A stretch of DNA of 53,683 nucleotides from an uncultured Planctomycetales bacterium. GTDB lineage: Bacteria > Omnitrophota > Gorgyraeia > Gygaellales > Profunditerraquicolaceae. The stretch lies in the NCBI GenBank assembly GCA_964362795.1, contig CAYIFW010000001.1, positions 14,483 to 68,165 on the forward strand. The letters are read 5' to 3'. Below, piece by piece: positions 13,085 to 40,434 of this stretch; the first letter of the stretch is position 1, and each line of letters starts with the position of its first letter. Below the pieces are notes generated by a model, which was given only the letters and a program-made list of their open reading frames with translations, was not told the DNA's origin and made no database searches. Both the position numbers and the translations under genes were made by a program.

Positions 13085-13088
13085 AGTT

Positions 13089-14123: not shown

Positions 14124-14139
14124 GCTCTTTTTTAGGAAT

Positions 14140-14168
14140 GGTTGGCCCCGGCAAACCCGGGGCTAACC
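14140..14168 (-). other. GC-rich intercistronic hairpin between the tetrahaem cytochrome gene and ccsB
   Basis: ggttggccccgg (14140-14151) pairs with ccggggctaacc (14157-14168). The stem is 12 bp with one G:T position and the loop is 5 nt. No U-tract follows on the minus-strand transcript. Confidence 0.5.
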
Positions 14169-14180
14169 ATAATAGTTTTA

Positions 14181-14711
14181 TTATTTTGCTGCAGGGTGAG
14201 TAATCCTAGGGTAATATTCTTTGAAATTAAACCCTTTAAAATTCGGGCTTTCGGCATTATGGCATTTAACGCACATCGCCTCCGCCGGATCAGTCAGGCC
14301 TAATTCTATTGATTTGGCCTTATCCTTCATCACGCTTATCGGTAAATAATCACCGCCGGCGCCATGGCAACTTTCACACTGCACACCATCCTCTTTGGAA
14401 AAACCTTCCCCTAATAAACTGCTATCCACTCCGTAAGCAGTCTGATGACATTTCAAACAAGCAGCGGCCTCTTGAGGATTGCCGGAAACGCCGGCTTTCT
14501 TGGCCGCTTCTTGAGCTTCAGGAGTTGCCAGCGTTACATAAGCCTTAGCATGCTTGGTCGAAAGCCACTTGCCATACTGATTACCTTTTGACTCGGATTT
14601 ATGGCACATCACGCATCTTTTAATTCCTACATATTCATGATCGGCAGCCAACGCAGCTTTAGTTACTCCTAAGACCAGAACCACCCCTATTAATATTATA
14701 TTCCGTTTCAT
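14181..14711 (-). CDS. Periplasmic tetrahaem cytochrome c
   Basis: Four CxxCH motifs (CVMCH, CLKCH, CESCH, CVKCH). Signal peptide MKRNIILIGVVLVLGVTKAALA. I chose the ATG at 14709-14711 because GGAGG (14718-14722) precedes it by 6 nt; the track ORF extends to 14744. Confidence 0.85.
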   Translation of the reverse strand: MKRNIILIGVVLVLGVTKAALAADHEYVGIKRCVMCHKSESKGNQYGKWLSTKHAKAYVTLATPEAQEAAKKAGVSGNPQEAAACLKCHQTAYGVDSSLLGEGFSKEDGVQCESCHGAGGDYLPISVMKDKAKSIELGLTDPAEAMCVKCHNAESPNFKGFNFKEYYPRITHPAAK

Positions 14712-14730
14712 CTTTATCCTCCCGCCGTTT

Positions 14731-15522
14731 TTAATTATGCTCAATAGTATGATGACAATCCCTGCAATCAGCTTTATTCCCTAAAATATGCGCTTTATGC
14801 ATAAGCAGAGCTTCGGGGATTTTCCCTAAATCCTTTTTATCCGCATGGCAATAAAAACAAAGTTGCTTAAGCACTTCACCATTGCCTGATTTGGCCGTGT
14901 CATGACAAGAAAGGCAAGTTGCATTCGGCTCCTGTAAATATTCCTTATGCGTAGCGGATTCTTTAATTGTTTTATGGCAATTTAAGCATTGCTTTATCAA
15001 CTGCTCGCCTTCAACGTTTTTAAAATGGCAGGTAAAGCAAGTGTTTTTATCTATAGAAATATGCTCTTCGTTAGTCAGCTGTTTATGGCAATTATTACAG
15101 TTAAGCGCAATACCTGCCTTGGAAGCAGCAAAATGCTTGGCATGAACAAAATCAACCTTGCCTTTAAAAATCACTTTTTTCGCGCTAACCGCTTCTCGGG
15201 TATGGCAACCCTGCCTTAAACAAGTCAAATCACTCACCGAAGCCTTAGGCTTTACCGCGTATTTTCCGGTCAAATATTTACCCACTTCGATTAACCCGTT
15301 TATTTTTCCAAAGACATGCGCTTTTAACCCCGGCTCATAATGGCATTCAATGCATTTTTCTTTATTATGGGCTGATTTCTTCCAGGAATCATAATAAGGC
15401 TTCATATTATGGCAAGCCAAACAGAACTCCGGCCGCTCGGTATAAACAATCAACGCCGCAGAGCCTAAAATAAATAAAAAAACCAGAAGAACCAAAATAA
15501 GAATTATTTTTATTTTTTTCAT
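14731..15522 (-). CDS. Membrane-anchored multihaem cytochrome c, NapC/NirT/NrfH-type N-terminus
   Basis: 263 aa. N-terminal TM helix, then eight CxxCH motifs (CLACH, CIECH, CNNCH, CFTCH, CLNCH, CLSCH, CFYCH, CRDCH) plus one CX4CH (CLRQGCH). Confidence 0.85.
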   Translation of the reverse strand: MKKIKIILILVLLVFLFILGSAALIVYTERPEFCLACHNMKPYYDSWKKSAHNKEKCIECHYEPGLKAHVFGKINGLIEVGKYLTGKYAVKPKASVSDLTCLRQGCHTREAVSAKKVIFKGKVDFVHAKHFAASKAGIALNCNNCHKQLTNEEHISIDKNTCFTCHFKNVEGEQLIKQCLNCHKTIKESATHKEYLQEPNATCLSCHDTAKSGNGEVLKQLCFYCHADKKDLGKIPEALLMHKAHILGNKADCRDCHHTIEHN

Positions 15523-17290: not shown

Positions 17291-17292
17291 TT

Positions 17293-17778
17293 TTATAGGC
17301 CTTTTAGCGGAAATTTTACGTTAATCTTAAAGATCCTGGTTGCCGGAAACTGGGATATTTTTTTAATATTCTTGTCCTGCTTAATCCGGGAAATAATTTG
17401 GTTAATCCTCTGAACATCCCGGGCAATTAAAGTAAACCAAAGGTTGTATTCGGCGTCTCGCCTATAGTTGTGCGTAACTTCGGGGTATAAATTTATTCTT
17501 TTAGCCACTTTTTCAATACATTGGGGCGCGATCTTCGCGGCAACTAATGTTGAGATAAAATTAATCTTACCTGGAGAAAAAATCGCGCTTATCCGGCGAA
17601 TTATGCCTTGTTTCTTTAAAAAAGCAATCCTTTTTAAAAGATAATCTTCTTTGATATTTAATTTGGCAGAGGCAACTTTCCAGGGCCTGGCAACAAAGGC
17701 AATATCCTCCTGCAGGCAACCTAAGATACGCTTATCCAGTAAGCTTAATTTACTTTTTACCGGGCGGCTGATAGGCAC
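17293..17778 (-). CDS. Siroheme decarboxylase subunit (AhbA/AhbB family)
   Basis: 161 aa paralogue of 16829-17290 (LDKRILGCLQEDIAFVARPW). Confidence 0.7.
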   Translation of the reverse strand: MPISRPVKSKLSLLDKRILGCLQEDIAFVARPWKVASAKLNIKEDYLLKRIAFLKKQGIIRRISAIFSPGKINFISTLVAAKIAPQCIEKVAKRINLYPEVTHNYRRDAEYNLWFTLIARDVQRINQIISRIKQDKNIKKISQFPATRIFKINVKFPLKGL

Positions 17779-19731: not shown

Positions 19732-19738
19732 ATTTTTT

Positions 19739-20974: not shown

Positions 20975-20975
20975 A

Positions 20976-23629: not shown

Positions 23630-23632
23630 AGT

Positions 23633-24553: not shown

Positions 24554-25580
24554 ATTTTGTATTTTCCTTTAACCACCAACCCATAAAAGCTTTAGAAGAA
24601 TTTTCAATAATGCTGACGCAAGTATCCAATTCGTTTTTTCTCAAAAATAGGTTCTGCTCGACAATTTTCTGCAAATCATCGATATTATACAAATAAACAT
24701 TGTCGATCTTATTTACCTCTTCTTGGACATCGCGCGGAACCGCCAAATCAATAATAAAAAGCGGCTTCTGCTTTCTTCTAGGCATGAGCTCCAAGATATC
24801 CTCTTGACGGATAATACAATGCGGAGCTCCTGTAGAGGTAATCACAATATCAACTTCCGCCAGTCTCTGCTTAAATTCATCAAAAGCAATTGCGGTAGCC
24901 GAAAACTTTTCCGTCAAGATTTGCGCTTTTTCCAGCGTGCGGTTAGCCACCAATATATTTTTAATCCCGTTTTTCTTTAAATATAACGCCAACTGCTCTC
25001 CGATAGTGCCAGCGCCGATAATCAGGGCAACTTTATCATCTAAGCCACCCAATATCTTCTTAGCCAGCCGAATTGCCGCCGAGCTTACCGAGACAGCCCC
25101 GCATCCGACAAAAGTATCAGTACGTATCTTTTTTGCCGTATTAAATGCCTTCTGAAATAATTTGTTTAAGATCTTCCCCGTGGAACCACTTTCCCTGGCA
25201 TCCTGATAAGCTTTTTTAACCTGGCCCAATATCTCCATCTCCCCAATGACCATGGAGTCAAGCCCTGAGGCAACCCGGAACAAATGCTCAATTGCTTCTT
25301 GGTCCCGATAAACATAGAATATAGCCTTATGATCATTAACTTCTAAATTATGGAATTGGCTTAAAAATTTTTTTATTGCGTCACTCTGATCGCTTTTTTT
25401 ACCACAGACCGCATAAACTTCCATCCGGTTACAAGTGGATAAGATTAAGTTCTCCGCTGCAAAACCCTCACTTTTAAGCAAACGGTTAGCTTCGCTAATT
25501 TGCTTAGGGGAAAATGAAAATTTTTCCCTTATCTTAACCGGAGCCGTTTTATGATTAATACCGATAACCGCCAAATTCAT
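24543..25580 (-). CDS. hemA: Glutamyl-tRNA reductase (short form)
   Basis: 345 aa. Catalytic STCNRMEVY and NADPH fold IIGAGTIGE. The C-terminal dimerisation region looks shorter than in the classical enzymes I remember (about 420 aa). Confidence 0.9.
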   Translation of the reverse strand: MNLAVIGINHKTAPVKIREKFSFSPKQISEANRLLKSEGFAAENLILSTCNRMEVYAVCGKKSDQSDAIKKFLSQFHNLEVNDHKAIFYVYRDQEAIEHLFRVASGLDSMVIGEMEILGQVKKAYQDARESGSTGKILNKLFQKAFNTAKKIRTDTFVGCGAVSVSSAAIRLAKKILGGLDDKVALIIGAGTIGEQLALYLKKNGIKNILVANRTLEKAQILTEKFSATAIAFDEFKQRLAEVDIVITSTGAPHCIIRQEDILELMPRRKQKPLFIIDLAVPRDVQEEVNKIDNVYLYNIDDLQKIVEQNLFLRKNELDTCVSIIENSSKAFMGWWLKENTKYDA

Positions 25581-25609
25581 TATTATTTCTCCGACAATAT
25601 TGAATTATT

Positions 25610-26053
25610 TTAACGACAAGTTGCCAACAGGCTAAACAAAAGCAGGCAAAAAGCAAAAAGCGACAATAGCGCCACTTTTCTGCCCCGTAATTTCTCCGCT
25701 ATCCGCATATGCAGAATAACCGCATAAATCAACCACAACACCAAAGAATAAATCTGGCGCAAATTATGAACTGCCCAATAAGCGCCATTGATATTCCTAG
25801 TCCAGATAAAGCCGCTAATAATCGCCAGAGTTAACAGAGGAAAACCCAAGCTAATACTTCGGTAATTAAGCTTGTCTAAAAATGCTAAATCTGGCAGCCT
25901 GTTAAAGATAACCCCCATGCGCTTACTTTTAATCAAGCTATCCTGGATAAGATAGGCCGCGGCCGCAAAGCTTGCCAGAGAAAAAATAAAATAACTTAAA
26001 AAGATACAAACAATATGCACAGTTGAATACAAGGCAGGATTAACGCTGAGCAT
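25610..26053 (-). CDS. Short HemX/CcsA-like membrane protein (cytochrome c assembly family, C-terminal-half equivalent)
   Basis: 147 aa with four predicted TM segments. It sits directly upstream of hemA, as in many hemA operons, but is about half the usual length. Confidence 0.55.
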   Translation of the reverse strand: MLSVNPALYSTVHIVCIFLSYFIFSLASFAAAAYLIQDSLIKSKRMGVIFNRLPDLAFLDKLNYRSISLGFPLLTLAIISGFIWTRNINGAYWAVHNLRQIYSLVLWLIYAVILHMRIAEKLRGRKVALLSLFAFCLLLFSLLATCR

Positions 26054-26681
26054 CTTCTAAATACTCCATTATTATTTTCTTTGCCGCTCGCTGCTTATTC
26101 TTCTTTAAAAAAGCCAATATCTTAGGCTCGAATATTCTCTGGAAAAACAAATTTCTTGCCCGGGGAAGTTTTATTTTTTTCAAAGCCAGCGGGCGGATTA
26201 TTTTCAGCAAACGTAATAATTTAGCATACTCGGGGCCGTACCTCTGCTGGATATCCTGACGGATTTTCCTAGCCAATGCCGGGCTTAGCCCATCCGTAGA
26301 TACGCTTATATTTAAACTCCCTCTTCTGAGGACCGCAGGCAGAATAAAACTACACTCTTGCGGAGAATCAACAACATTAACTAAAATATTATTTTTTAAA
26401 CAATAAGCAGAGGCCAATGCGTTTAGCTTTCTATCGTCTGTGGCGGCAACCACTAAAAATGCTCCTTTTAAATCTCCTAAACCGGCTCTTTTATTTTTAA
26501 AGACAATCTTCTTTTGACCGAACAACTTTTTTAATTGCGGGGTAATCTCCTGAGAAATTACTAAAACGCGCGAGCCGCATTCTAGAAGCCGCCTAATTTT
26601 ACGCCAGGCCACAGCTCCAGCTCCCAGCACCACGCATTTTTTATTTTCCAGCGACAAATTTAAAGGATAATATTTAATCAT
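26040..26681 (-). CDS. sirC: Precorrin-2 dehydrogenase / sirohydrochlorin ferrochelatase (SirC/Met8/CysG-N type)
   Basis: 213 aa. N-terminal NAD fold VVLGAGAVAWRK and SVSTDGLSPALAR. Confidence 0.85.
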   Translation of the reverse strand: MIKYYPLNLSLENKKCVVLGAGAVAWRKIRRLLECGSRVLVISQEITPQLKKLFGQKKIVFKNKRAGLGDLKGAFLVVAATDDRKLNALASAYCLKNNILVNVVDSPQECSFILPAVLRRGSLNISVSTDGLSPALARKIRQDIQQRYGPEYAKLLRLLKIIRPLALKKIKLPRARNLFFQRIFEPKILAFLKKNKQRAAKKIIMEYLEDAQR

Positions 26682-26695
26682 TAGATTAATTAAGT

Positions 26696-27682
26696 TTACT
26701 TATTAATTTTTAATTTATTCTCAGTATAGATTATTCGACCATCGGGAGTAACAATAGCCGCCTGCAGATTCTTAATTCTATTTAAAGCCTGAATCCCGGC
26801 TTGAGCGCCCAACACAAAAGGAATTTTTGCCCAAGCTTGCGCCAAAACAGGATCAGGGTGAGTTACCGTTACCCCGACAACTCCTTCAGTGGGATAACCC
26901 GTGGCCGGATTGAATATATGATGATACCGCTTCCCATCTTTAATAAAAAACCTCTCATAATCTCCGGAGCTAACCACGGCCTGATCTTTTGCTTCCACAT
27001 ATCCTAAAATGGCTTTAGCCCGAGGATCCTGAATCCCTATCTTCCAGGGCTTTACGCCATTCTTTCCTAAAACATAAACGTCGCCTCCCAGATCGATCAA
27101 CGCAGCAGTCACTCCATTATTTTTTAGAGCAGTAGCGGCCTGGGCCAAAGCATAACCTTTAGCAATCCCGCCAAAATCGATCTTAACTCGCGGATTATCT
27201 TTATTCAACTCTCCGTTCTTAAATAAAAGGTGGTGATAACCGACATTACGCAGGCAAGCCTTAATCTGTTCATCCTTGGGGATAGCCGAAAATTTGGTAT
27301 AAAAACCCCAAAGTTCCGATAATGGCGCAACAGTAATATCAAAAGCTCCTAAAGACTCTTGGCTGATCTCCAATGCCCTCCTGACCAAACCGATAATCTC
27401 GGAATCAGTAATCGGTGCATTGCTTTGATTAAAAGCATAAACCGGACTTTGCGAATTAACCGGATTAAATTTTACATCGATCTCCTGCATCCGGATAAAA
27501 GCGGAATTTATTGCCTGGGTGGCGATCGCTTTAGGCCCTAAAGCGATAATCGTAGCGTAAGTGCCCATCAAAAGGCGGGTTTCATTCTCTGAATGCTCGC
27601 TGCCTACTTTGGACTGCCTTAGACTCCAAAACCCCAAAGCTAACAAAATTACCACGCCAATTATCCGTAAAAATTTATTCAT
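26696..27682 (-). CDS. apbE: FAD:protein FMN transferase ApbE
   Basis: 328 aa. N-terminal membrane anchor or signal, AFDITV, GGIAKGYA, and SSGDYERFF...HHIFNPATGYP. Confidence 0.9.
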   Translation of the reverse strand: MNKFLRIIGVVILLALGFWSLRQSKVGSEHSENETRLLMGTYATIIALGPKAIATQAINSAFIRMQEIDVKFNPVNSQSPVYAFNQSNAPITDSEIIGLVRRALEISQESLGAFDITVAPLSELWGFYTKFSAIPKDEQIKACLRNVGYHHLLFKNGELNKDNPRVKIDFGGIAKGYALAQAATALKNNGVTAALIDLGGDVYVLGKNGVKPWKIGIQDPRAKAILGYVEAKDQAVVSSGDYERFFIKDGKRYHHIFNPATGYPTEGVVGVTVTHPDPVLAQAWAKIPFVLGAQAGIQALNRIKNLQAAIVTPDGRIIYTENKLKINK

Positions 27683-27700
27683 TATTAAATATACTTTCTT

Positions 27701-28720
27701 TTAATTATTACCGAATCCTCTACTGGTAATAAAATCAGTTAAAGAGCACAAGCTCTCTTTATACGCGGAGTCCGGGAATACGCTTAAATTATCTTTAGCC
27801 AAAGCTATAAAACTTAAAACCGTGTTTTTCGTCTTAAGAATAGCCTGGGAATCAAAAAACATAGATTTTAACCTCTTAAAAGATTTCGGGCAACGGCTCC
27901 TGGCTAATATTTTCCTTACTTTACCCCTCTGGCTTGGCGGGACTGACTCCAGTAAATTTAAAATGGGCAAAGTAAGCTCCCCGGTCTTAAAATCAGCTCC
28001 GGGATCCTTTCCTAGTTCTTTTTCACTGGCAATTAAATCCAAGCAATCATCCATTATCTGAAAAGCAATGCCAAAATTAAGCCCGTATTCTTTTAAAGCT
28101 TCTTGCGTAACTCTGTTTGAACCGGCCATAATCGCCCCGGCCTGACAAGATGCGGCAAATAAAACCGCGGTTTTCTTTTGGACCATAATCAAATACTGTT
28201 TTTTTAGCAGGTCTAAGTTATCCCTTTGACAGACCTGCTGCAATTCCCCTTCGCACATCAATTTAGCCGCCCAGCTGATACAACTAAGTATATCCGGATT
28301 AGCGCATTGAGCAATTAAGCTAAAAGCTTCAGTATAAAGGTAATCCCCGGAGGCAATCGCCACATCCTGGCCCCATTTACGGTTAATCGTAGGCAAATGA
28401 TGCCTTAAATCAGCATGGTCGATAATATCATCATGCACCAAAGAAGCCGTATGAATCAACTCTAAGGCTGCGGCAACTTTTAACAGTTTATCTCTGTCCG
28501 CTTTAAAAGCAAAATCCTTAGTTTTGGGCCCATAAGTTAAACTGACTCTGGCCGAGAGAACCGCCAAAGCCGGCCTTAATCTCTTACCCGGCACTCTTAA
28601 TAAAAATCTATTTATTTCCCCGATTGCCGAAGAGCCGGATCCGCCCAGCGATGTACGCAGGACATTATTTATCCCGCTTAATTCTTTTCCTACCGGACTA
28701 TAAATTTTTTTTAACTGCAT
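27701..28720 (-). CDS. Long-chain polyprenyl diphosphate synthase
   Basis: 339 aa with two DDxxD motifs (LVHDDIIDHAD, IMDDCLD). Confidence 0.9.
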   Translation of the reverse strand: MQLKKIYSPVGKELSGINNVLRTSLGGSGSSAIGEINRFLLRVPGKRLRPALAVLSARVSLTYGPKTKDFAFKADRDKLLKVAAALELIHTASLVHDDIIDHADLRHHLPTINRKWGQDVAIASGDYLYTEAFSLIAQCANPDILSCISWAAKLMCEGELQQVCQRDNLDLLKKQYLIMVQKKTAVLFAASCQAGAIMAGSNRVTQEALKEYGLNFGIAFQIMDDCLDLIASEKELGKDPGADFKTGELTLPILNLLESVPPSQRGKVRKILARSRCPKSFKRLKSMFFDSQAILKTKNTVLSFIALAKDNLSVFPDSAYKESLCSLTDFITSRGFGNN

Positions 28721-29649
28721 TATTTCACCACAAAGATTTTATCCATTGCAAGTCCGGCGCAGAGCAGTAGACCCACCAGAGAATGTAATCCGATGGTTAA
28801 AGCATTCGCCGGCAATAATTCCTGAATTTTCTGGAAGTTTTTCCTGGATACATCAAAGGAGGCCAAGGCCAGAGGCAAACTAAATAAGGTAATGAGGCAG
28901 AAGAAAGGTAAGTATTTAAATAAAACCAAAAATATAATCGACAAATATGTGCTTGCCAACAAAGCATGGTATAAGGTCATCGCCCTTTGTTGGCCCAAAA
29001 TAACAACTAGCGTCTTTTTACCGACAGCCTTATCCGCCAAATAATCCGGGAATTCATTAATAAATAAAATCATCGCCACTAAAATACTTATCGGCAAAGA
29101 CACCAGCAACACCCTTAACGGCAACTGCTCAAGCTGGACATAATAAGTGCCCGCCACAATTAATAATCCGCAGCCAATCCCTACCGCCAATTCCCCAAAA
29201 CCCCCATAGACTATCCGGAAGAATTTAACGGTATAGAAAAAACCCAGGAAAACTCCGACTACGCCCAGTCTAAGCACCACATAGCTGCCGGATAAATAAT
29301 TAAGATATAAACCGATTGCGCTGCCTAAAATAAAACAGGTTATCGCCGCCAAAAATATATTTTTTGCCGAAATCTGTTTTTCCTGGATTACTCTTGAGCC
29401 TCCGCTAAAAGGAGTGCAATTTTTATTTATTTCATCGCATCCGGAAAGATGATCAAAATAATCATTAACCAGGTTTGTTCCCGCATGGATAAAAGCTACT
29501 CCGATAAACGTAAGTAAAAACTTCTGCCAATTCAGCCTAGAGTTATCATGCCAGGCTAAAGTTGCCCCCAAAACAACCGGCACTATTGTTGCCGTAAAAA
29601 ACGGAGCTCTTACCGCTTTAATCCAGAGGCCAATTTGCTTAATCTGCAT
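28720..29649 (-). CDS. menA: UbiA-family prenyltransferase, MenA-like (1,4-dihydroxy-2-naphthoate polyprenyltransferase)
   Basis: Polytopic membrane protein with NLVNDYFDHLSG and a second Asp-rich motif EFPDYLADK. I chose the ATG at 29647-29649 (MQIKQIGLW...); the track ORF extends to 29706. Confidence 0.8.
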   Translation of the reverse strand: MQIKQIGLWIKAVRAPFFTATIVPVVLGATLAWHDNSRLNWQKFLLTFIGVAFIHAGTNLVNDYFDHLSGCDEINKNCTPFSGGSRVIQEKQISAKNIFLAAITCFILGSAIGLYLNYLSGSYVVLRLGVVGVFLGFFYTVKFFRIVYGGFGELAVGIGCGLLIVAGTYYVQLEQLPLRVLLVSLPISILVAMILFINEFPDYLADKAVGKKTLVVILGQQRAMTLYHALLASTYLSIIFLVLFKYLPFFCLITLFSLPLALASFDVSRKNFQKIQELLPANALTIGLHSLVGLLLCAGLAMDKIFVVK

Positions 29650-30211
29650 TCTGATCCGCTTCCTCAATCTTAATTGCCCCTGTCGGACAGACATAGGCGC
29701 AGGCACCGCATCCGATGCAGGTATCCGAAGTCTTATCCGAAGGCGTACGCACTTTTCTTTTGATTCCCCGGTGCGTAAAACTTATGGCGTGCCTACCGGT
29801 AATTTCCGCGCAGACCCGCACGCATAAACCGCATAATATACAGATACTTTTACTGCGTAAATGAATCCGGGTTCCGGTTACGCCGTAATCTTGAGCTAAT
29901 TTTTTAATTTTTTCCGAATCCGGAGACCTGGCTAATAAAAGTTCGAAGATAATTTTGCGCGTAGCGACAACCTTCTCCGTGTCAGTTTTGACAACCATAC
30001 CTTCTTTAACTTTACAAAGACAAGCCACCTGCAGGCCCGGCTTTCCGCCGGCAATTATCTCCACCAAACATAACCTGCAGCAACCATAAGAAGTTAATTC
30101 TTTGTGGTAACACAAAGTGGGTATCTTTATACCCACCTCGGTTGCCGCCTCCAGAACGGTCCTACCCTCTTGAACCTGTAATTTTTTATCATTAATCGTA
30201 ATATTAATCAT
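29639..30211 (-). CDS. Soluble 2Fe-2S plus 2x[4Fe-4S] ferredoxin-domain protein, resembling the HydA/NuoG/FdhA N-terminal region without any catalytic domain
   Basis: ITINDKKLQVQEGRTVLEAA...CYHKELTSYGCCRLCLVEI (Fer2-type), then CILCGLCVRVC and CIGCGACAYVCPTGAI. The start is uncertain: ATG at 30211 (chosen), 30235 or 30253. Confidence 0.75.
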   Translation of the reverse strand: MINITINDKKLQVQEGRTVLEAATEVGIKIPTLCYHKELTSYGCCRLCLVEIIAGGKPGLQVACLCKVKEGMVVKTDTEKVVATRKIIFELLLARSPDSEKIKKLAQDYGVTGTRIHLRSKSICILCGLCVRVCAEITGRHAISFTHRGIKRKVRTPSDKTSDTCIGCGACAYVCPTGAIKIEEADQNAD

Positions 30212-30650
30212 GGGAATTGTAGACAACCCGTTCATCTCCTTTCCGGTATTCATAAATAAAATGCACTCCGGGATTGCTGGCAACTAATACCGCGATTGTT
30301 TCTAAAAGATCACCTAACGGTTTAGTATCCGGATGGCTAAGCTTAAACTCCGCCACAACCTTAGTGCCTTTGGCTTCCTGCGAATCTATTTTTAAAACTC
30401 CGCCGGCTTCTTGGGTTGCCTGATGCAACAGCGAAAGCCCTAAACCGAATTTCTTTCCGTCTTTAGTCGTAAAAAAAGGGTCTTGGGCTTTTTTTAAAGT
30501 TTGCTCATCCATGCCCAGGCCATCATCTTGGACAATTACCGAGAGCCTATCCGAGGCTTCATCCTCTAAAACCTCAATGCGGATTTTCTTGGCTTTTGCT
30601 CTGATTGCGTTTTCAGCTATATCCAGGATGTGTAAAGATAAATCTTTCAT
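30204..30650 (-). CDS. Stand-alone GHKL/HATPase_c ATP-binding protein
   Basis: 148 aa. HILDIAENAIRA (N-box-like), DDGLGMD and FGLGLSLL. Confidence 0.75.
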   Translation of the reverse strand: MKDLSLHILDIAENAIRAKAKKIRIEVLEDEASDRLSVIVQDDGLGMDEQTLKKAQDPFFTTKDGKKFGLGLSLLHQATQEAGGVLKIDSQEAKGTKVVAEFKLSHPDTKPLGDLLETIAVLVASNPGVHFIYEYRKGDERVVYNSHD

Positions 30651-33007: not shown

Positions 33008-34816
33008 TTAATTAACCTTAATCGCTCCAAATTTACATTTTTCTAAACAGATACCGCATTTAACGCATTTATCCGGATTAATTTTATGCGGCAGCTTCTT
33101 TTCTCCGGAGATTGCTTCCGGCGGACAGCTTTTCACGCACACCGTACAGCCTACGCAAACTTTTTCATCAATAACAAATTTAAGCAACGGCTTACACATC
33201 TTAGCCGGGCATCTTTTTTCGAAAATATGCGCTTCATATTCATCCCTGAAATAAAGCAATGTGCTTAATACCGGATTAGGCAATGTCTGGCCCAAACCGC
33301 ACATGGATGAACTTTTCACCGCCGCCGAAAGCTCTCCGAGTATATCCAGATCTTCTTTTACTCCCTGCCCATTACAGATCCTCTCCAAAATTTCCAGCAA
33401 CGCGATTGATCCGTCGCGGCAGGAAGAACACTTGCCGCAGGACTCATCGCTGGTAAATTCGAGAAAATATTTCGCCAAATCCACGACACAGGTATCTTCA
33501 TCCATAACAATTAGGCCACCTGAACCCATAATCGAACCGGCCTCAGTCAACTTCTCATAATCAATCGGCAGATCAATTAATCTGGCCGGGATACACCCTC
33601 CTGAAGGGCCTCCGGTCTGCAGAGCTTTAAATTTTTTATTATTCGGAATACCTCCTCCGATATCATAGACCACTTCTTTGATCGTAATACCCATCGGAAC
33701 TTCCACTAATCCCGTGTTATTTATTTTACCGACCAGAGAAAACACTTTTGTCCCCGGGCTCTGAGCAGTACCTATCTTAGAAAACCACTGCGCTCCTCGG
33801 TCAATAATATTAGGAACGTTAGCCCAGGTCTCCACATTATTAATATTAGTCGGAAATCCCCATAACCCTGATTGAGCCGGAAACGGCGGGCGCTGGCTGG
33901 GTTCCGGGGGCCTACCCTCAATAGAAGCAATCAACGAAGTTTCTTCTCCGCAAACAAACGCTCCGGCGCCTTGTTTAATGTGCGCCTTAAAACTAAAATC
34001 TGTGCCGAAAATATTCTTACCCAAAAGGCCGTATTCTTTGGCCTGAGCAATAGCCGTTTCCATCCTCTCTCTGGCAAGCTGATACTCCTCCCGGATATAA
34101 ATATACGCTTCAGTGGCGCCGATGGCCCGGGCGCCAATCAACATCCCCTCCAATACGGCATGCGGATCAGCTTCGACAATACTTCTATCCATAAAAGCCC
34201 CCGGATCTCCCTCATCAGCATTGCAAATTATATATTTTGTATCGGCAACAGATTTCTTGCACAACTCCCATTTCTGTCCCGTGGGAAAACCGCCGCCGCC
34301 GCGGCCGCGTAAACCGGAATCTTTGATCTCCTGAATTATTCCTTCCGGAGTCATCGCCGTAAGAGCTTTAGCTAATGCCCGATAGCCACCCCTGGCGATA
34401 TATTCATCGATCTTTTGCGGATCAATTAAACCCCGATTTTTAAGCACCACTAATGTCTGACGCGAAAAAAAATCAATATCACTGATCTTGGGAATAGCGA
34501 TTTTTTCAGTAGGCGGGACAAACATAAACTTCTCCACCGGCCGGCCTTTGAGAAAATGTTCTTCTACTAGATAAGGGATCTTTTCCTCGGTCAGGCTATG
34601 ATAAAATATTCCATCCGGCATAACCGTCATCAATGGCCCGACCGCGCAAAATCCTATACAACCGGTCATCACCACGGTTACCTCTTTATCTAAACCTTGC
34701 TTGATCAGTTCAGCCTCCAACACCTGGCGGATTTTAAATGATTTATTGGAAACGCAACCGGTCCCGGCGCACAACATCAACTGCAGCCTTATTCTTTGAT
34801 CCGCTGGCTTATTCAT
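33008..34816 (-). CDS. NuoF-type NADH-binding FMN/Fe-S flavoprotein (HydB/HndC/BfuB-like)
   Basis: 602 aa. N-terminal thioredoxin-like 2Fe-2S (CAGTGC...TGCIGFCAVGP), GRGGGGFPTGQKW, NADEGDPGAF, ESCGKCSSCRDG, and two C-terminal 4Fe-4S motifs (CVGCTVCVKSCP, CVKCGICLEKC). Confidence 0.92.
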   Translation of the reverse strand: MNKPADQRIRLQLMLCAGTGCVSNKSFKIRQVLEAELIKQGLDKEVTVVMTGCIGFCAVGPLMTVMPDGIFYHSLTEEKIPYLVEEHFLKGRPVEKFMFVPPTEKIAIPKISDIDFFSRQTLVVLKNRGLIDPQKIDEYIARGGYRALAKALTAMTPEGIIQEIKDSGLRGRGGGGFPTGQKWELCKKSVADTKYIICNADEGDPGAFMDRSIVEADPHAVLEGMLIGARAIGATEAYIYIREEYQLARERMETAIAQAKEYGLLGKNIFGTDFSFKAHIKQGAGAFVCGEETSLIASIEGRPPEPSQRPPFPAQSGLWGFPTNINNVETWANVPNIIDRGAQWFSKIGTAQSPGTKVFSLVGKINNTGLVEVPMGITIKEVVYDIGGGIPNNKKFKALQTGGPSGGCIPARLIDLPIDYEKLTEAGSIMGSGGLIVMDEDTCVVDLAKYFLEFTSDESCGKCSSCRDGSIALLEILERICNGQGVKEDLDILGELSAAVKSSSMCGLGQTLPNPVLSTLLYFRDEYEAHIFEKRCPAKMCKPLLKFVIDEKVCVGCTVCVKSCPPEAISGEKKLPHKINPDKCVKCGICLEKCKFGAIKVN

Positions 34817-34823: not shown

Positions 34824-35207
34824 CTAATAAATCCTCTCATTGCCCTTGGCCAACACATATTCATTAATAATTTTCCCGCCCAGTATATGCTCGGTTAATA
34901 TCCTGCGGATTTTCTCCGGATTTAAATCGGCGTATTTTATCGGAGTTTCGCCTTTAATCTCTACCGTAGCCATCGGCTCCCGGCTGCATAAACCGGCGCA
35001 CCCTGAGCTGGTTATAACAACATCATTAATATTTCTTTTCTCAAATTCTTCTAAAAGGACATTCATTATTTCTCTAGCCCCGGCAGAAATACCGCAGGTC
35101 CCCATATGCACGGTTATTTTTGCCCGCCCGGCACCCTCTTGCAAAAGAGTAGTTTTTTTAACCCGCTGCGTAATCTTATCTAAATCTTCAATGCTTATTT
35201 TTTTCAT
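34824..35207 (-). CDS. Thioredoxin-like 2Fe-2S ferredoxin (HndB-like)
   Basis: 127 aa. MGTCGISAGA...SGCAGLCSREP. Confidence 0.8.
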   Translation of the reverse strand: MKKISIEDLDKITQRVKKTTLLQEGAGRAKITVHMGTCGISAGAREIMNVLLEEFEKRNINDVVITSSGCAGLCSREPMATVEIKGETPIKYADLNPEKIRRILTEHILGGKIINEYVLAKGNERIY

Positions 35208-36163
35208 ACACTGGCCTCTTTATATTTTTTTATTAAATTCACCACTTTATTTTGATCCATAATCCCGCAGATCTCTTCGCCGACTTTTAACACCGGCGCC
35301 AGACCGCAGCAACCCAGGCAACGCACAGTCTTAAGCGTAAAAAGCATATCTTCGGTAGTCTGGCCTCTTTTTATTTTCAACTCTTCCTCGAGGGCATAAA
35401 GAACTTTTTCAGCCCCCTTAACATGGCAGGCGGTTCCGGTGCAAACAGTAATTACATTCTTACCGATCGGCACTAAACTAAAAGAACTATAAAAAGTCGC
35501 CGTGCGATAAATTAAACTTAAAGGTATATTCAGGTCCTTAGACACATGCTTGAGAATGGCTTCCGGAAGGTAATTGTAGGTTTTATTAATCCTCTGCAAA
35601 ATAGGAACCACCGCTTCCTCTACCTGTTCATAGGCATCGCTGATTTGCTTTAATTTGGCCTGATCATCCGAATCAAACTTAATCTTATGCATTCTTTCCG
35701 TTGACGGCAAAATTTCTTGCTGCACGATCTTAAAACTCCAGCGTAATTTCGCGTCAAAAGAGCGCCTTCTAATTATTGTCTTAACCGTCTCCAGAAAATC
35801 AGGAATCATTATCTCAATATCTTTTTTTATTTTAACCTGACAAGCCAGGCGCATATTTGAAAGCCTCTCCTCCCTACTCATAAAGGCTTCTTCCGTAGGA
35901 AGCAGCGACTCGCCGCCGCTTAACACTTTTACCTTGCAATATCCGCAACTAGCCTTACCACCGCAAGCGCTAGATATATTAATCTTATTTTCCGTCAAAA
36001 CCGGCAGAAGAAAACCGCCTCCTTGAACAATAAATACTTTTTTCTCATCATTCTGGTTTACGGTTACCTTGCATTCCCCGTAAGTAACCAGATACTTCTC
36101 GGCTATTAAAAGGATTATGGCAATTACCACCAAAACCATGTTCATTATGAAAATAGCTATCAT
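35204..36163 (-). CDS. Fusion protein: TM helix plus NqrF-type plant-like 2Fe-2S ferredoxin domain plus NuoE/HydC-type thioredoxin-like 2Fe-2S domain
   Basis: 319 aa. N-terminal MIAIFIMNMVLVVIAIILLIAEKYL, then SACGGKASCGYCKVKV...LACQV (NqrF N-terminal pattern). There is no FAD/NADH domain. The C-terminal half carries ATFYSSFSL.P.GK..I.VCTGTACHVKGA...CLGCCGLAP (NuoE pattern). ATGA overlaps occur at both ends. Confidence 0.8.
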   Translation of the reverse strand: MIAIFIMNMVLVVIAIILLIAEKYLVTYGECKVTVNQNDEKKVFIVQGGGFLLPVLTENKINISSACGGKASCGYCKVKVLSGGESLLPTEEAFMSREERLSNMRLACQVKIKKDIEIMIPDFLETVKTIIRRRSFDAKLRWSFKIVQQEILPSTERMHKIKFDSDDQAKLKQISDAYEQVEEAVVPILQRINKTYNYLPEAILKHVSKDLNIPLSLIYRTATFYSSFSLVPIGKNVITVCTGTACHVKGAEKVLYALEEELKIKRGQTTEDMLFTLKTVRCLGCCGLAPVLKVGEEICGIMDQNKVVNLIKKYKEASV

Positions 36164-36753
36164 TGTAAGGTAATTATTCCGGCAAAACCCGTAAAAGCCA
36201 GCGCCATTAATCCGGCTACAATCATCGTAATACCTGAACCACGCAGCCCTTCGGGAATATCACTAACTAACAATAATTTCTCTTTGATTGCCGCCATAAG
36301 CACAATTGCCAATGCCCAGCCGGCGGAGGTGCCTAAAGAATAACATACGGTCTGGATAAAAGAATATTTTCTTAAAACCATAAATAAAGAAACCGCTAGA
36401 ACTATACAGTTGACGGTAATCAACGGCAAAAATATCCCGAATGAAGATTGCAGGGGAGGAAAGAATTTCTCAATAATCATTTCCAATAGCTGCACCGTAG
36501 CGGCAATAACAATAATAAAAATCAGGTAGGAAATAATCTCGGCATGCGCCGGCACCAGAATTTTCCAATAGATCGGCCAGTTAATTACCGCAGTTAGTGT
36601 AACTACGAAAATAATGGAGAGCCCCATACCGCTGGCGGTTTTCAGATTTCTAGAAATAACAATCAGCGGGCACATCCCCAAGATGTAAGCTAAAGCGATA
36701 TTATGGGTGAAGATAGACGCGACCAGTAATACCCAAGGATTAGTGGGATTCAT
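36160..36753 (-). CDS. nqrE: NqrE/RnfA-family membrane subunit
   Basis: 197 aa. LGMCP, VQLLEMIIEKFFPPL, GIFLPLITVNC and GLRGSGITMIVAGLMALAF, close by eye to Vibrio NqrE as I recall it. Confidence 0.85.
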   Translation of the reverse strand: MNPTNPWVLLVASIFTHNIALAYILGMCPLIVISRNLKTASGMGLSIIFVVTLTAVINWPIYWKILVPAHAEIISYLIFIIVIAATVQLLEMIIEKFFPPLQSSFGIFLPLITVNCIVLAVSLFMVLRKYSFIQTVCYSLGTSAGWALAIVLMAAIKEKLLLVSDIPEGLRGSGITMIVAGLMALAFTGFAGIITLQ

Positions 36754-36755: not shown

Positions 36756-37388
36756 CTAATTACTCTCTTTCTTAAATATCGTCCTAAATATCCACAGATA
36801 CACGCCCAAAAGAAAAAACGCTCCCGGGGCAATCGTTAAAATAACCCAATTCTCCCAGAAAGCCGGCATCACTCTGTGCCCAAAAAATGTCCCAAAACCC
36901 AGCGGCTCCCGAATAAATGCCATCAGAATCAACATAAAACTATAACCTAAACCGGAACCTATCCCGTCTAAAAAAGAAAACCACGGCCCGTTTTTAATCG
37001 CATACCCCTCAGCTCTACCCATCAGAATACAGTTAGTAATAATCAAGCCGACATACGGGCCCATCGCCTCGCTGATCGGAGGAAAATACGCCTTAAGAAA
37101 TCTATCCACGCAAATAACAAAAGTAGCAATAATCGTCATATAAGCCAGCATTCTTACTCTGGAAGGTATAACGTTTCTCAACAAAGAAACCAGAAGCGAG
37201 CCAAAGGCTGTGCAAAAAGTAACACCGATACCCATAGCAAAGGCGTTATCCATCCGGTTAGTAATCGCCAAGGAAGAACAAATACCTAAAATCATACAAA
37301 AAATAGGGTTCTCCTGGATGACGCCAAAAGTCAGGGCCTTAAACCACCCGGCCTGGCTAATTTTCTTTTTATTCTTATCTATCGCCAT
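36756..37388 (-). CDS. nqrD: NqrD/RnfE-family membrane subunit
   Basis: 210 aa. LGICSSLAIT, VDRFLKAY, VGLIITNCILMGRAEGYA and DGIGSGLGY. Confidence 0.85.
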   Translation of the reverse strand: MAIDKNKKKISQAGWFKALTFGVIQENPIFCMILGICSSLAITNRMDNAFAMGIGVTFCTAFGSLLVSLLRNVIPSRVRMLAYMTIIATFVICVDRFLKAYFPPISEAMGPYVGLIITNCILMGRAEGYAIKNGPWFSFLDGIGSGLGYSFMLILMAFIREPLGFGTFFGHRVMPAFWENWVILTIAPGAFFLLGVYLWIFRTIFKKESN

Positions 37389-37391: not shown

Positions 37392-37964
37392 CTACCCTTT
37401 CAACGCAGACAAATATTTCTGCACATTTTCATTAATCAATTTCTCCAAGGCCCGGCTGGAACCGGTTGCCCCGGTTATCGCGTCCACTTCATTTTTTTGC
37501 CTAGATGTCCCTTCGGCAACAAAAACTAATTTAGGCAGAACCTCTTTATTTTTAAAATTTTTCAGGTAATCCTGATCGCCGATCCTGCTGCCTAATCCGG
37601 GAGTCTCCTCTTGATAAGTGATTTTAATTTTACGAATAGTCTTTAAATCTTTCTCCAGGCTGATAATACCGGAAATCGGCCCCCACAATCCCGGACCGTG
37701 GAATTCAAAAGCAATCCCCCCATCAACAGCGCTATAAAAAGTATAAATATCTTTATTTACAGTTTTTACCTGAGCGTCAAATATTTTTATCACGCTATCT
37801 TTAGCATAAGCAATTTCAAGAGCTGCCAATATCGAGGATTTTAATTTCAATTCGTCATTTTTAGCAATTAAATAAGCTGTGGAAAGATTTATCCCTAAGA
37901 GCAGGCCTCCGGAGATCGAGCCCATCAATATCACAAAAATTATTACTCTTATGGCGTTTTTCAC
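37392..37964 (-). CDS. nqrC: NqrC/RnfG-family FMN-binding subunit
   Basis: 190 aa. N-terminal TM helix, HGPGLWGPI, ETPGLG and the flavinylation motif DAITGAT. Confidence 0.8.
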   Translation of the reverse strand: MKNAIRVIIFVILMGSISGGLLLGINLSTAYLIAKNDELKLKSSILAALEIAYAKDSVIKIFDAQVKTVNKDIYTFYSAVDGGIAFEFHGPGLWGPISGIISLEKDLKTIRKIKITYQEETPGLGSRIGDQDYLKNFKNKEVLPKLVFVAEGTSRQKNEVDAITGATGSSRALEKLINENVQKYLSALKG

Positions 37965-39031
37965 TGGGTTTTATACCTCAATTTCAATACGACCGAATCG
38001 ATCAACGGAGTAAAAACATTAACTAAAAGTATGCTAAACATTACCCCTTCGACATAGCCTGAAAACCCGCGGATTAAAGCGGTAAGTATGCCCAATAAAA
38101 CTCCGGCCACCCATTTTCCCGGTTTAGTAAACGGGCTGGTTACCGGATCGGTGGCCATAAAAAACGCGCCGAGAAGCAGCCCGCCGGATAAAAGCTGAAA
38201 CGCCGGAGCCGCCAGATGGCTATGAAAAAAAGTATTGCCGATTAAAGCAAATAACGGCGCGGTAATTAAATAAGCTAATGGGATACGCCAGTCGACTATT
38301 TTGGTAAAAATTAAAAATAAGCCTCCGGCAATTATACCGATGCGAAAAGTCTCGCCGATACAGCCGGCGCCTGAGCCAAGCAGCATATTTATCCAGGGAG
38401 TAACGATACCCTGATTTTTAAACAACACCAAAGGGGTGGCCTTAACAATCGCATCGATAGTATTCTGATAATGCGCCAACCCTCCCCAGCCTGAAGAAAA
38501 TGGCACCTGCCAATTTACCGACATTATCCTGGGGAAAGCGACGCTTAAAAAAATCCTTCCCACAATCGCCGGATTAAAAATATTCCTACCAGTGCCGCCA
38601 AAAGCCTCTTTGCCGAAGATCACCCCGAACATTATTCCCACCGCCACGATCCATAACGGCACCCCGGGTGGCAAAATCAAAGGAAAGATAAGCCCGGTGA
38701 CCAGAAAGCCTTCATGGATTTCTTTTTTGCGGACAATAGCAAACCCAACTTCGACCAGGCCGCCAAAAATATAAGATACCGCAATCACCGCCAAAACCCG
38801 CAAACCCCAAAAATACACCGAAGCGATAACCACCGGAACCAAAGCAATCACCACCATAAACATAAATCTTTTTATATCCAGGTAATCGGTAATATGCGGA
38901 ATAATATTTATTTTATCCGTGCCAAAAAGCGCCTCATCCGCGGCATTTAAAATCGGCTTCAACGGATTAAGATATTTATTTTTCTCAATTACCGCCTGAA
39001 TCTTTTTTAAGGCTGTTCTGATGATTTTCAT
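37961..39031 (-). CDS. nqrB: NqrB/RnfD-family membrane subunit
   Basis: 356 aa. NqrB-like N-terminal extension (KKIQAVIEKNKYLNPLKPILNAADEALF...LDIKRFMFMV), DAIVKATPL (candidate FMN-Thr site) and FFMATDPVTSP. Confidence 0.85.
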   Translation of the reverse strand: MKIIRTALKKIQAVIEKNKYLNPLKPILNAADEALFGTDKINIIPHITDYLDIKRFMFMVVIALVPVVIASVYFWGLRVLAVIAVSYIFGGLVEVGFAIVRKKEIHEGFLVTGLIFPLILPPGVPLWIVAVGIMFGVIFGKEAFGGTGRNIFNPAIVGRIFLSVAFPRIMSVNWQVPFSSGWGGLAHYQNTIDAIVKATPLVLFKNQGIVTPWINMLLGSGAGCIGETFRIGIIAGGLFLIFTKIVDWRIPLAYLITAPLFALIGNTFFHSHLAAPAFQLLSGGLLLGAFFMATDPVTSPFTKPGKWVAGVLLGILTALIRGFSGYVEGVMFSILLVNVFTPLIDSVVLKLRYKTQ

Positions 39032-40434
39032 TTTTTAACGTGGAATCCTTCGGCTAATAATTTTTTCTGGCCTTCCTGAATATATTTTAATAACGGTATT
39101 TTTGACGGGCAGACAAAACTGCATAAACCGCATTCAATACAATTAAAAATTTCATAATTGATCAAAATCTCATCAATAATCTCTTTGCGGACATATTTAA
39201 CTAATAAGTGCGGGATAATCATTGCCGGGCAGCTATACTCGCAAAAACCGCAGGATATACAAGGCCTTTCTTCGCCATGCTGATTAGTATCCACGGATTT
39301 TTTTATCCCCGGAAGCCAATGCGCCAGAAACGCTCTGCTGTAAGAATCCTGCCTGCACCCGGGCCGCGCAAAAGCTAAAAATTCTCTTCCTTTACTATCA
39401 GCAATAGCAATAATCTGCGCAAACGTCTTATCGATAGGAGACAAAAGAGCCTTTAATTCCTGGCCGGTAAACAAACTATTCAAGATTAACCTTATCGATT
39501 CATCGGATTTCAACCTACCCTCGATAATTTCATGCAAAGGCGTCCCCAGGCGCACCTTTAAATGAATATTCTCTTTAAAAGAAGGCCCGCTTAAGGCGAC
39601 AATCTTTTCAATAAAAGGCTTCCCTAAAGCTACCGCATCATAGACAGCTAATACCTCCTCTGCCGACAACAGGATTACGCCAATATCAGATGCGCAACCG
39701 CCATGCGGAATTTTTTTCTGCAACAAGGTTGATAAAAGCACTTGCTGGCAACCTTGAGGATATTTCGGCTCAACCGTACAAAGATTAAACCAATCCAAAT
39801 GCGCCGTTAATTTAGAAATTTCATTAATTATTTTCTTATTTTTCCGGCTGAACACCAAATTAACTTGAGCCGAGGGCATAATCTTTTTTAATATATTTAT
39901 CCCTGCGATAAAATTTAACGTATTTTCCCCTTCTAAAATTAAATCTAAGGAATAATTATAAGGTTCCGAGGCTGTCTCCTGGACAATAATCTGCGTAATC
40001 TTTCCCGAAGAATCCGCGGGTAAGCCTAACGCCCCGGAAAGAAAAATTAATTCTTTTATTTTTTCATTATTTAATTTCTGCCAGGAAGCCAGCTGGCCTC
40101 CCAGGGGTTTAACTTGACGGGAAGTATCACTACTGCGGATGACAATTATCGCAGATTCGCTTTTTGACTCCTTCGGATACTTAATATCTTCGACAATACC
40201 ATTCACCGAAGCATGCGCCGGGCTTAAAATATCAGCAGCATCTTTACCGATTATTTGGCCGGCAAAAACTATATCTCCTTTTTTTACCAGGGGTTTTACT
40301 TCAGCCTTAGAACTTCGGCTCAACGGAATAAGCACCCGTAAAGGAAGCTCGGCTAATGAAAGCAGCGGTTTGGCTTGGCCGGGATAATTCTTAAACCTGA
40401 AGCCTCCCTTAAATGTGCGTAAATGCTTTAACAT
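39028..40434 (-). CDS. NqrA/RnfC-family peripheral subunit that retains two [4Fe-4S] motifs
   Basis: 468 aa. N-terminal barrel-like VLIPL...VKKGDIVFAGQIIG, KYPQG, and C-terminal CISCGFCEYSCP and CIECGLCSFVCPSK. I saw no GGAGFPT-type flavin/NADH motif (GALGLPADSSGK occupies that position). Confidence 0.8.
   Translation of the reverse strand: MLKHLRTFKGGFRFKNYPGQAKPLLSLAELPLRVLIPLSRSSKAEVKPLVKKGDIVFAGQIIGKDAADILSPAHASVNGIVEDIKYPKESKSESAIIVIRSSDTSRQVKPLGGQLASWQKLNNEKIKELIFLSGALGLPADSSGKITQIIVQETASEPYNYSLDLILEGENTLNFIAGINILKKIMPSAQVNLVFSRKNKKIINEISKLTAHLDWFNLCTVEPKYPQGCQQVLLSTLLQKKIPHGGCASDIGVILLSAEEVLAVYDAVALGKPFIEKIVALSGPSFKENIHLKVRLGTPLHEIIEGRLKSDESIRLILNSLFTGQELKALLSPIDKTFAQIIAIADSKGREFLAFARPGCRQDSYSRAFLAHWLPGIKKSVDTNQHGEERPCISCGFCEYSCPAMIIPHLLVKYVRKEIIDEILINYEIFNCIECGLCSFVCPSKIPLLKYIQEGQKKLLAEGFHVKK

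Follow-up and report, generated by a model that had tools for sequence, protein, structure and literature searches.

How did the A subunit of NQR, the NADH:quinone oxidoreductase that translocates Na+, come to lose its redox centres? According to reviews and structure papers up to 2025, NqrA carries no redox cofactor, has no assigned function, and is derived from RnfC by loss of flavin mononucleotide (FMN) and of both [4Fe-4S] clusters (PMC12174285, PMC11889175, PMC9588780, PMC4014512). A stepwise decay of RnfC into NqrA was predicted by Reyes-Prieto et al. in 2014, who did not report retained cysteines. The question is raised anew by a gene on the minus strand of a 53,683-nucleotide stretch of contig CAYIFW010000001.1 (assembly GCA_964362795.1, forward-strand positions 14,483 to 68,165), hereafter called the window. 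A preliminary description of the window had taken the product of this gene (here, the window A subunit) for a possible intermediate between RnfC and NqrA. Our analysis points, with moderate confidence, to a redox-driven ion pump of NQR type, whose A subunit would have kept two [4Fe-4S] clusters as a side branch and would bind no FMN or NAD(H).

Cluster motifs, flavin loop and linker of the window A subunit

The gene and the features of its product that bear on this question are as follows (positions are those of the window).

39028..40434, minus strand: window A subunit gene, NqrA-type, two [4Fe-4S] motifs, no FMN/NADH site; 468 aa, ATG start (open reading frame, Pfam, trees)
39226..39261, minus strand: first CxxCxxCxxxCP motif, CISCGFCEYSCP, residues 392-403 (C392, C395, C398, C402)
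39100..39141, minus strand: second CxxCxxCxxxCP motif, CIECGLCSFVCPSK, residues 432-445 (C432, C435, C438, C442)
40000..40035, minus strand: remnant of the RnfC/NuoF FMN phosphate loop, GALGLPADSSGK, residues 134-145, the loop itself being deleted (alignments)
39958..39972, minus strand: ASEPY, residues 155-159, degenerate counterpart of RnfC N-x-x-E-C-E-P-Y (alignments)
39262..39396, minus strand: NqrA-specific linker, residues 347-391, ending in DTNQHGEERP and having no counterpart in RnfC (alignments)

The open reading frame of the preliminary description proved to be real and to lie on the minus strand, the plus-strand translation of the same interval having stops throughout, and all four strings quoted there (CISCGFCEYSCP, CIECGLCSFVCPSK, GALGLPADSSGK and ASEPY) were located in the protein. 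Its reading of the C-terminus also held: eight Cys are present in the two motifs, and the region matches Pfam 4Fe-4S dicluster models. Besides several of these models, such as Fer4_17 (E = 2.8e-8) and Fer4_8 (E = 3.3e-8), Pfam detected RnfC_N, Complex1_51K (part of the Nuo51 FMN-domain fold), and NQRA_SLBB, which passed with 33.9 against a threshold of 27. Because the C-terminal region scores as a dicluster domain, its Cys pattern is not a matter of chance. In an alignment with Omnitrophota relatives, the organism's own RnfC, and NqrA, the two Cys motifs occupy the exact positions of NqrA FVVSGEYEKVFP and EDFALCEFVCTSK. The earlier remark that the second motif corresponds to the cluster-less remnant in Vibrio NqrA was borne out in the phmmer alignments with PDB chains, where 'ciecglcsfvcpsk' is aligned with 'lalctfvcpgk' of V. 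cholerae.

The flavin site was assessed by column statistics on a 170-sequence alignment that includes 37 RnfC sequences. In these 37 sequences, the FMN loop is strongly conserved (G100-x-G94-G97-A83-x-F89-P100-T72, in per cent), as is the second motif (N-x-x-E97-C91-E100-P100). In the window A subunit and 103 relatives, the loop is degenerate or deleted; the N-x-x-E-C-E-P motif is likewise degenerate across this iron-sulfur (Fe-S) NqrA-like group, and in the window A subunit the loop has been deleted outright. Here, G-x-G-G-A-x-F-P-T is replaced by GAL-----GLPAD------SS, N-x-x-E-C-E-P-Y by QETASEPY, and Y-P-Q-G-x-E-K-Q-L by YPQGCQQVL (EKQL to QQVL). The phmmer alignments also place RnfC GMGGATFPTHVKLAPPPDKNI opposite a gap. 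Omnitrophota relatives of 499 aa have a degenerate loop (SLDREGIPT), and the window A subunit is shorter than these by 11 further residues at this place. Thus, as the preliminary description had suggested, there is no recognisable flavin/NADH site; the alignment with RnfC and NqrA did not reveal an intact but divergent one, given the deletion of the phosphate loop, the change of ECEPY to ASEPY, and the altered EKQL.

A further difference from RnfC concerns the linker. Alignments with RnfC break in two, ending at residue ~345 and restarting at ~387, whereas V. cholerae NqrA runs unbroken through this region. Residues 347-391 align only with NqrA (V. cholerae, Bacteroidota, and Chlamydia; Balneolaceae NqrA also has the motif), with DTNQHGEERP of the window A subunit opposite LDTNQHGEERAF of NqrA. 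The linker has a median length of 61 aa in the Fe-S group and also in canonical NqrA, against 26 aa in RnfC; its motif has a G and an R that are 97-100% conserved in each of the two groups with the long form. Judged from these alignments, the linker and its G..R ('DTNQHGEER') motif are derived NqrA characters common to the window A subunit.

Profile scores and fold have to be set beside these characters. Were the protein an ordinary RnfC, belonging to a ferredoxin:NAD+ Rnf complex and retaining an FMN/NADH site that is divergent yet functional, this would account for the fact that the top single hidden Markov model (HMM) match and the best PDB sequence matches are all RnfC (TIGR01945; C. tetanomorphum, A. 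vinelandii, and A. woodii, with 7zc6_C at E = 1.9e-40). However, the rnfC score of 215.2 bits is under the curated NCBIfam cut-off of 245.95, the FMN loop is deleted, and the NqrA linker is present. Canonical NqrA was also rejected as an identity, since no Cys of the two motifs is missing and the scores with the nqrA models fall far under their cut-offs (TIGR01936, 114 against 321 bits; NF003761, 164 against 450 bits). An AlphaFold2 model (predicted local distance difference test 87.8, predicted template modelling score 0.89) matches RnfC chains with template modelling (TM) scores of 0.77-0.78 and NqrA chains with 0.73-0.75, and such a predicted fold by itself cannot tell RnfC from NqrA.

Relatives of the window A subunit and the order of losses

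A word-indexed protein search with the window A subunit yielded 483 matches, most of which are Omnitrophota proteins of ~499 aa labelled NqrA by JGI and '4Fe-4S dicluster domain-containing protein' by NCBI. An exhaustive search of representatives (50% identity clusters) gave 329 clusters at E<1e-30. Both Cys motifs occur in 144 of the best 150 of these 329 representatives. Approximately 100 of the best 150 combine the two motifs with a long linker and no FMN loop, come from Omnitrophota, Desulfobacteraceae, and others, and extend to ~30% identity; the others with both motifs are RnfC. Sequences were classed by linker length, and four RnfC with divergent loops (P0219, P0231, P0239, and P0266) were set apart from the Fe-S group. 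The distribution within Omnitrophota is patchy (9 of 301 sampled species genomes have the gene). No description of an Fe-S-bearing NqrA was found in a literature search that did not extend to subscription journals.

The gene neighbourhoods of these relatives are of several kinds. The typical Omnitrophota operon has the order A(499)-B-C-D-E, then an NqrF of 358 aa (TIGR01941, 308 bits against a cut-off of 295), then MenA; in some of them, a peptide/PqqD/radical-SAM cassette stands between nqrF and the prenyltransferase gene. A 468-aa subgroup, 72-76% identical to the window A subunit, shares synteny over the whole operon of the window, including its NuoE fusion (see below), and this NuoE/NuoF variant is also present in Desulfofustis and a related delta-proteobacterial metagenome-assembled genome (MAG). 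In MAGs assigned to Desulfobacteraceae (Desulfobacula, Desulfobacterium, Desulfotignum, and Desulfobacter), the Fe-S NqrA gene comes first in nqrABCDEF operons of canonical size, with both motifs in 8 of 8. The deepest branches of the family are likewise accompanied by NqrF-type genes. Two deep branches (loci L195 and L197) show altered operons, one with the order B-C-D-E-x-A-NqrF beside V-type ATPase genes and the other with a rubrerythrin gene between C and D. In a single Omnitrophota genome, the gene directly upstream of Fe-S nqrA (L009:5432-6637) encodes an EtfA-type electron-transfer flavoprotein subunit that begins with a 2x[4Fe-4S] ferredoxin domain. Moreover, most Omnitrophota Fe-S NqrA (L007-L010, P0008 onward) end in a conserved tail of 26-31 aa with two extra Cys, GCDRTQCILPYF[DN]LKG[IL]EEYRGVTKL, which the window A subunit does not have.

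Trees were built from 170 A/C proteins and, under the site-heterogeneous LG+C20 maximum-likelihood (ML) model, from 73 of such sequences. In the 170-protein tree, RnfC (support 100) stands apart from Fe-S A subunits plus NqrA (100); nested in the latter group, cofactor-less NqrA forms a single clade (99) whose sister group is the Desulfobacterota Fe-S forms (100). The LG+C20 tree has the same topology (100/100 for RnfC against the rest, 100/99 for canonical NqrA, and 100/100 for its sister relationship). In that tree, the window A subunit belongs to the NqrA-side clade (100/100) and lies outside the canonical cofactor-less crown (100/99), in a stem grade; nesting within RnfC, which by the preliminary description would have refuted the intermediate, was not observed. 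The topology remained unchanged after removal of the ferredoxin-domain, linker, and FMN-loop columns, which rules out an artefact of the common ferredoxin domain. An arrangement with the Fe-S forms as their own sister clade of NqrA was rejected, appearing in 0 of 200 bootstrap trees and failing an approximately unbiased (AU) test (log-likelihood difference 171, p=1.7e-5) in which the tested group was defined only once the first tree was known. A tree from the joined NqrB+D+E (RnfD+E+A) sequences of 77 operons, with Rnf as root, agrees with this: every operon with an NqrF-type gene falls on one side (100); compact Fe-S-A and A-less operons are the first to branch, and the crown of canonical-size NQR takes in the Desulfobacterota Fe-S forms.

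These results bear on the RnfC identity as well. The host genome (1.24 Mb in 122 contigs, ~90% complete, with Candidatus Omnitrophota as nearest relatives) has a canonical rnf cluster of its own on another short contig, where RnfC (513 bits, GLGGASFP) is followed by RnfG and RnfD and the contig ends after rnfD. Complete rnfC-G-D-E-A-B operons, including RnfB, were found in Omnitrophota relatives. With this separate cluster, the 100/100 split from RnfC, and an operon that has no RnfB, the RnfC reading appears extremely improbable, and we rejected it on motifs, linker, HMM cut-off, operon content, and tree position. We also noticed that several Omnitrophota loci (L001, which is the host's own contig C97, L028, and L110-L120) depart from the usual rnfC-D-G-E-A-B arrangement and have rnfC-G-D-E-A-B.

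The proposed intermediate is therefore supported, with qualifications. The window A subunit retains an ancestral state between RnfC and NqrA; it is not a unique link, being one member of a large living family, and canonical NqrA is sister to the Desulfobacteraceae forms, not to the Omnitrophota branch of the window. The polarity from cofactor-bearing to cofactor-less follows from the fact that the RnfC FMN site is common to NuoF-type proteins. As read from these sequences, the flavin/NAD site appears to have been lost first, on the NqrA-side stem, and the clusters later, once in our sample, on the stem of canonical NQR. The family thus sets the order of losses in the transition from Rnf to NQR. 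It also shifts the place where NQR probably arose: Chlorobi/Bacteroidetes had been proposed in 2014, and the family points instead to strict anaerobes whose NQR operons are compact. The early branching of Desulfobacteraceae NQR, which Reyes-Prieto et al. (2014) noted as 'anomalous' and put down to gene transfer, may be explained by the family as well. Because the Fe-S form occurs in MAGs assigned to Desulfobacteraceae genera with cultured members, the function of NqrA is now open to experiment.

Operon, gene island and putative electron path

On the minus strand, the window A subunit gene opens an operon with the order A-B-C-D-E, followed by an NqrF-type/NuoE fusion, a small ferredoxin, a NuoF/HydB-type protein, five regulator-like genes, and a HoxU-like gene; RnfB is not encoded in it.

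37961..39031, minus strand: NqrB-type subunit, 356 aa, with the FMN threonine (DAIVKATPL) (profile and alignment)
37392..37964, minus strand: NqrC/RnfG-type FMN-binding subunit, flavinylation motif DAITGAT
36756..37388, minus strand: NqrD-type subunit, with C37 and C120 as ligands of the intramembrane 2Fe-2S centre
36160..36753, minus strand: NqrE-type subunit, with C28 and C116
35204..36163, minus strand: fusion of 319 aa, NqrF N-terminal membrane anchor, plant-type 2Fe-2S ferredoxin, and NuoE/HoxE-type 2Fe-2S domain
34824..35207, minus strand: small thioredoxin-like 2Fe-2S ferredoxin
33008..34816, minus strand: NuoF/HydB-type flavoprotein with GRGGGGFPTG and NADEGDPG intact
29639..30283, minus strand: HoxU/NuoG-N-terminal-type Fe-S protein

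The B subunit is of NqrB type. It has an N-terminal arm of ~45 residues that aligns with NqrB and that RnfD does not possess, and its G90-G91 pair is aligned with G140/G141 of V. cholerae. Since the loop insert of canonical NqrB is missing, this subunit also looks intermediate. In V. cholerae NQR, the N-terminal helices of NqrB make the quinone and inhibitor pocket (PMC12174285). A separate observation concerns nqrBCDEF-like operons of compact form without a detected A gene: 14 loci (L030-L033, L037, L038, L041, L042, L057, L059, L061, L079, L080, and L087) from Clostridia, Acholeplasmataceae, Anaerococcus, Spirochaetes, Cloacimonadota, and Sedimentisphaerales. The upstream gene lies on the opposite strand in several of them, and the B subunits of the two examined (L032 and L037) do not have the N-terminal arm that binds A.

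The input side of the operon differs from that of most relatives. The fusion retains the conserved NqrF-type 2Fe-2S ligands (C67/73/76/108), and its NuoE/HoxE domain, together with the separate NuoF-type protein, stands in for the FNR-like FAD/NADH domain of NqrF. From its intact motifs, the NuoF/HydB-type flavoprotein is the likely site of NADH. The suggestion that NADH enters through a NuoF-like subunit is accordingly plausible for the sub-lineage of the window and does not hold in general, as sister Omnitrophota operons carry a normal compact NqrF. The window variant implies that the NADH input module of NQR is exchangeable, between the NqrF-FNR form of most relatives and the NuoE/NuoF form. 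Such a NuoE/NuoF-type (HydC/HydB/HoxU-like) module in place of the NqrF FAD/NADH domain was observed in the window and at loci L035, L036, L193, and L194, including Desulfobacterota of Desulfofustis type. Electron-bifurcating enzymes are known to have modules of this HydC/HydB/HoxU-like type.

Downstream of the operon, on the same strand, lies a respiratory gene island (window positions 12311-28720) with genes for polyprenyl synthase, ApbE, sirC-like, hemX-like, hemA, hemC, cobA-hemD, hemB, and hemL functions, three radical SAM (Ahb-like) proteins, an ahbA/B-like siroheme decarboxylase, two cytochromes, ResB, and CcsA. Its heme synthesis set is siroheme-dependent. The following genes are pertinent to quinone and flavin chemistry.

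28720..29706, minus strand: MenA, 1,4-dihydroxy-2-naphthoate polyprenyltransferase (TIGR00751, 116.8 bits against a cut-off of 102.15)
27701..28720, minus strand: polyprenyl diphosphate synthase
26696..27682, minus strand: ApbE flavin transferase, which attaches flavin to subunits B and C
14731..15522, minus strand: octaheme cytochrome c, N-terminal region of the NapC/NirT family, candidate for quinol oxidation
14181..14744, minus strand: tetraheme c554-like cytochrome

The synteny of MenA with nqr is kept in relatives, where MenA and polyprenyl synthase genes lie beside nqrF. In two Omnitrophota loci (L191:15517-18784 and L192:15482-19221), the gap between nqrF and the prenyltransferase gene holds a peptide of 41-43 aa whose tail (W[EQ]KPTLEDVS.KIMAQPYIRFT) is conserved, together with a PqqD-family chaperone and a radical SAM/SPASM enzyme nearest to MftC (127 bits, under the cut-off of 265), followed by a divergent UbiA/MenA-like prenyltransferase (menA 64 bits, under 102) and a polyprenyl synthase. 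The host genome contains a trio of radical SAM, PqqD, and UbiA genes on another contig (C2:35209-37665). These radical SAM/PqqD/UbiA genes could be a route to a peptide-derived prenylated cofactor.

An NADH:menaquinone-type pump is proposed because of the NQR-type core ligands, the quinone-site elements of NqrB, the MenA/polyprenyl synthase synteny, ApbE, and the NapC/NirT-type oxidiser. In such a pump, NADH would be oxidised at the FMN of the NuoF-type protein, and the fusion, by way of its NuoE-type and NqrF-type 2Fe-2S centres, would carry the electrons to the NqrD/E intramembrane centre, from where they would reach the FMN on NqrC, the FMN on NqrB, and the riboflavin on NqrB. The final acceptor would be a menaquinone-type quinone in the site formed by the NqrB N-terminal helices beside NqrA, with export of Na+ (or H+), and the quinol may be re-oxidised by the NapC/NirT-type multiheme cytochrome of the island. 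The clusters of the A subunit would serve as a cytoplasmic side branch or electron store by the quinone site, with no route to NAD+. We infer that ion-exporting electron flow in both Rnf and Nqr runs from the RnfB/NqrF side to the RnfC/NqrA side; if NADH enters on the F side, the acceptor should therefore have a potential above that of NADH, and reduction of ferredoxin at A would be excluded.

What the clusters do can be approached from RnfC, in which riboflavin lies 11.7 A from the nearest cluster and both clusters are an obligatory relay from riboflavin (PMC9588780). By homology, the proximal cluster of the window A subunit would be ~12 A from riboflavin, and the clusters are thus taken as redox-active. 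In a rival role, electrons would leave riboflavin through both clusters for a second substrate site on A. Such a second cytoplasmic electron gate, from NqrB riboflavin to a site on NqrA lost in canonical NQR, seems unlikely to us, although several points favour it: the relay through identical clusters in RnfC, the conservation of all eight Cys in a family that spans down to ~30% identity, and an input module of the HydB/HydC type that is also seen in ferredoxin-linked bifurcating enzymes. Older biochemistry, in which quinone binding to isolated V. cholerae NqrA was reported, counts for it too. The substrate could be a quinone, held either in what is left of the FMN/NAD pocket or where A and B meet, or a docked soluble partner, be it ferredoxin that feeds electrons in without pumping or an acceptor of higher potential. 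If true, ancestral NQR would have had two cytoplasmic exits or entries, a chemistry absent from Rnf and from Vibrio NQR. On the other hand, the B subunit already has the N-terminal helices and GG pair of the V. cholerae quinone site, canonical NQR functions without clusters, and the coupling direction inferred above would not allow ferredoxin reduction on the A side. In addition, no conserved partner gene was found beside A across the relatives' loci examined.

The clusters might instead be structural relics of strict anaerobes, non-catalytic, serving solely to keep the ferredoxin-like domain intact, and replaced by hydrophobic residues as NQR entered oxygen-exposed lineages. In canonical NqrA, the fold persists with M/I/Y/M/L/L at six of the Cys positions, the Fe-S forms come from anaerobic groups (Omnitrophota, Desulfobacteraceae, and Desulfofustis), and Rnf is extremely oxygen-sensitive (PMC9588780). 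However, Bacteroidota are anaerobic too and have a cluster-less NqrA, and, at ~12 A, electrons would be exchanged between a redox-cycling riboflavin and a cluster unless the potential of the cluster were far off. As an overall explanation, we regard this as improbable, slightly more so than the second gate. In a rough ranking of cluster roles taken by themselves, the side store comes first, a little short of an even chance, and a relay to a site on A and a mainly structural role follow level with each other.

Several points weigh against an NQR-type pump with a side branch of clusters. Cluster occupancy and redox role are read from motifs, and strict conservation of Cys is equally expected for purely structural clusters. 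The NuoF/HydB-type module and its HoxU-like partner resemble electron-bifurcating enzymes, and ferredoxin may be involved as well. The rooting assumes RnfC as outgroup, and the Fe-S sequences from the representative search were chosen by a two-motif filter. In the ~90% complete genome, neither MenB (TIGR01929) nor MqnA/D (PF02621) was found, nor were cytochrome bd and an NrfD-type quinol enzyme; the naphthoquinone head group could be salvaged, or a head group of another kind could be used.

Comparison with known systems

The window A subunit shares with NqrA of the V. cholerae Na+-NQR (7xk3_A, 8a1u_A, and 4u9o) the first place in an operon of nqrABCDE order, the absence of an FMN/NADH site, the NQRA_SLBB domain, a linker of NqrA length with the conserved G..R ('HGEER'), a partner NqrB with N-terminal arm, and the fold (TM 0.73-0.75). 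It differs in keeping eight cluster-ligand Cys, in scoring far under the nqrA cut-offs, and in its position outside the canonical clade. With RnfC (C. tetanomorphum 7zc6_C, A. woodii 9eri_C, and A. vinelandii 8ahx_C), it has in common the N-terminal barrel-sandwich domain, the NuoF-like fold, and, at the C-terminus, a 2x[4Fe-4S] ferredoxin domain in which the Cys are spaced identically (fold TM 0.77-0.78); unlike RnfC, it has a deleted FMN loop, degenerate NAD(H) motifs, ~45 extra linker residues, no RnfB partner, and a place in a separate clade.

Its closest counterparts are the Fe-S NqrA of Omnitrophota and Desulfobacteraceae, which show the same motifs and the same A-B-C-D-E order with a following NqrF-type gene, often with MenA and polyprenyl synthase. 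Compared to the Omnitrophota relatives, the window A subunit is shorter (468 against ~499 aa), with 11 more loop residues deleted and no Cys-bearing tail (GCDRTQCILPYF...), and its operon has NuoE/NuoF instead of the NqrF FAD/NADH domain. Particular to the window are the input module of NuoE/NuoF type, the respiratory island and, in A itself, the additional loop deletion and the absent C-terminal tail. A parallel exists in the Rnf of Desulfobacula toluolica Tol2 type (PMC5109826), which, compared by its description only, has a C/A-side subunit without an NADH domain and NAD(H) binding shifted to the input side. The Tol2-type complex keeps an enlarged RnfB with an NAD site, whereas the input of the window complex is an NqrF-type anchor fused to NuoE.

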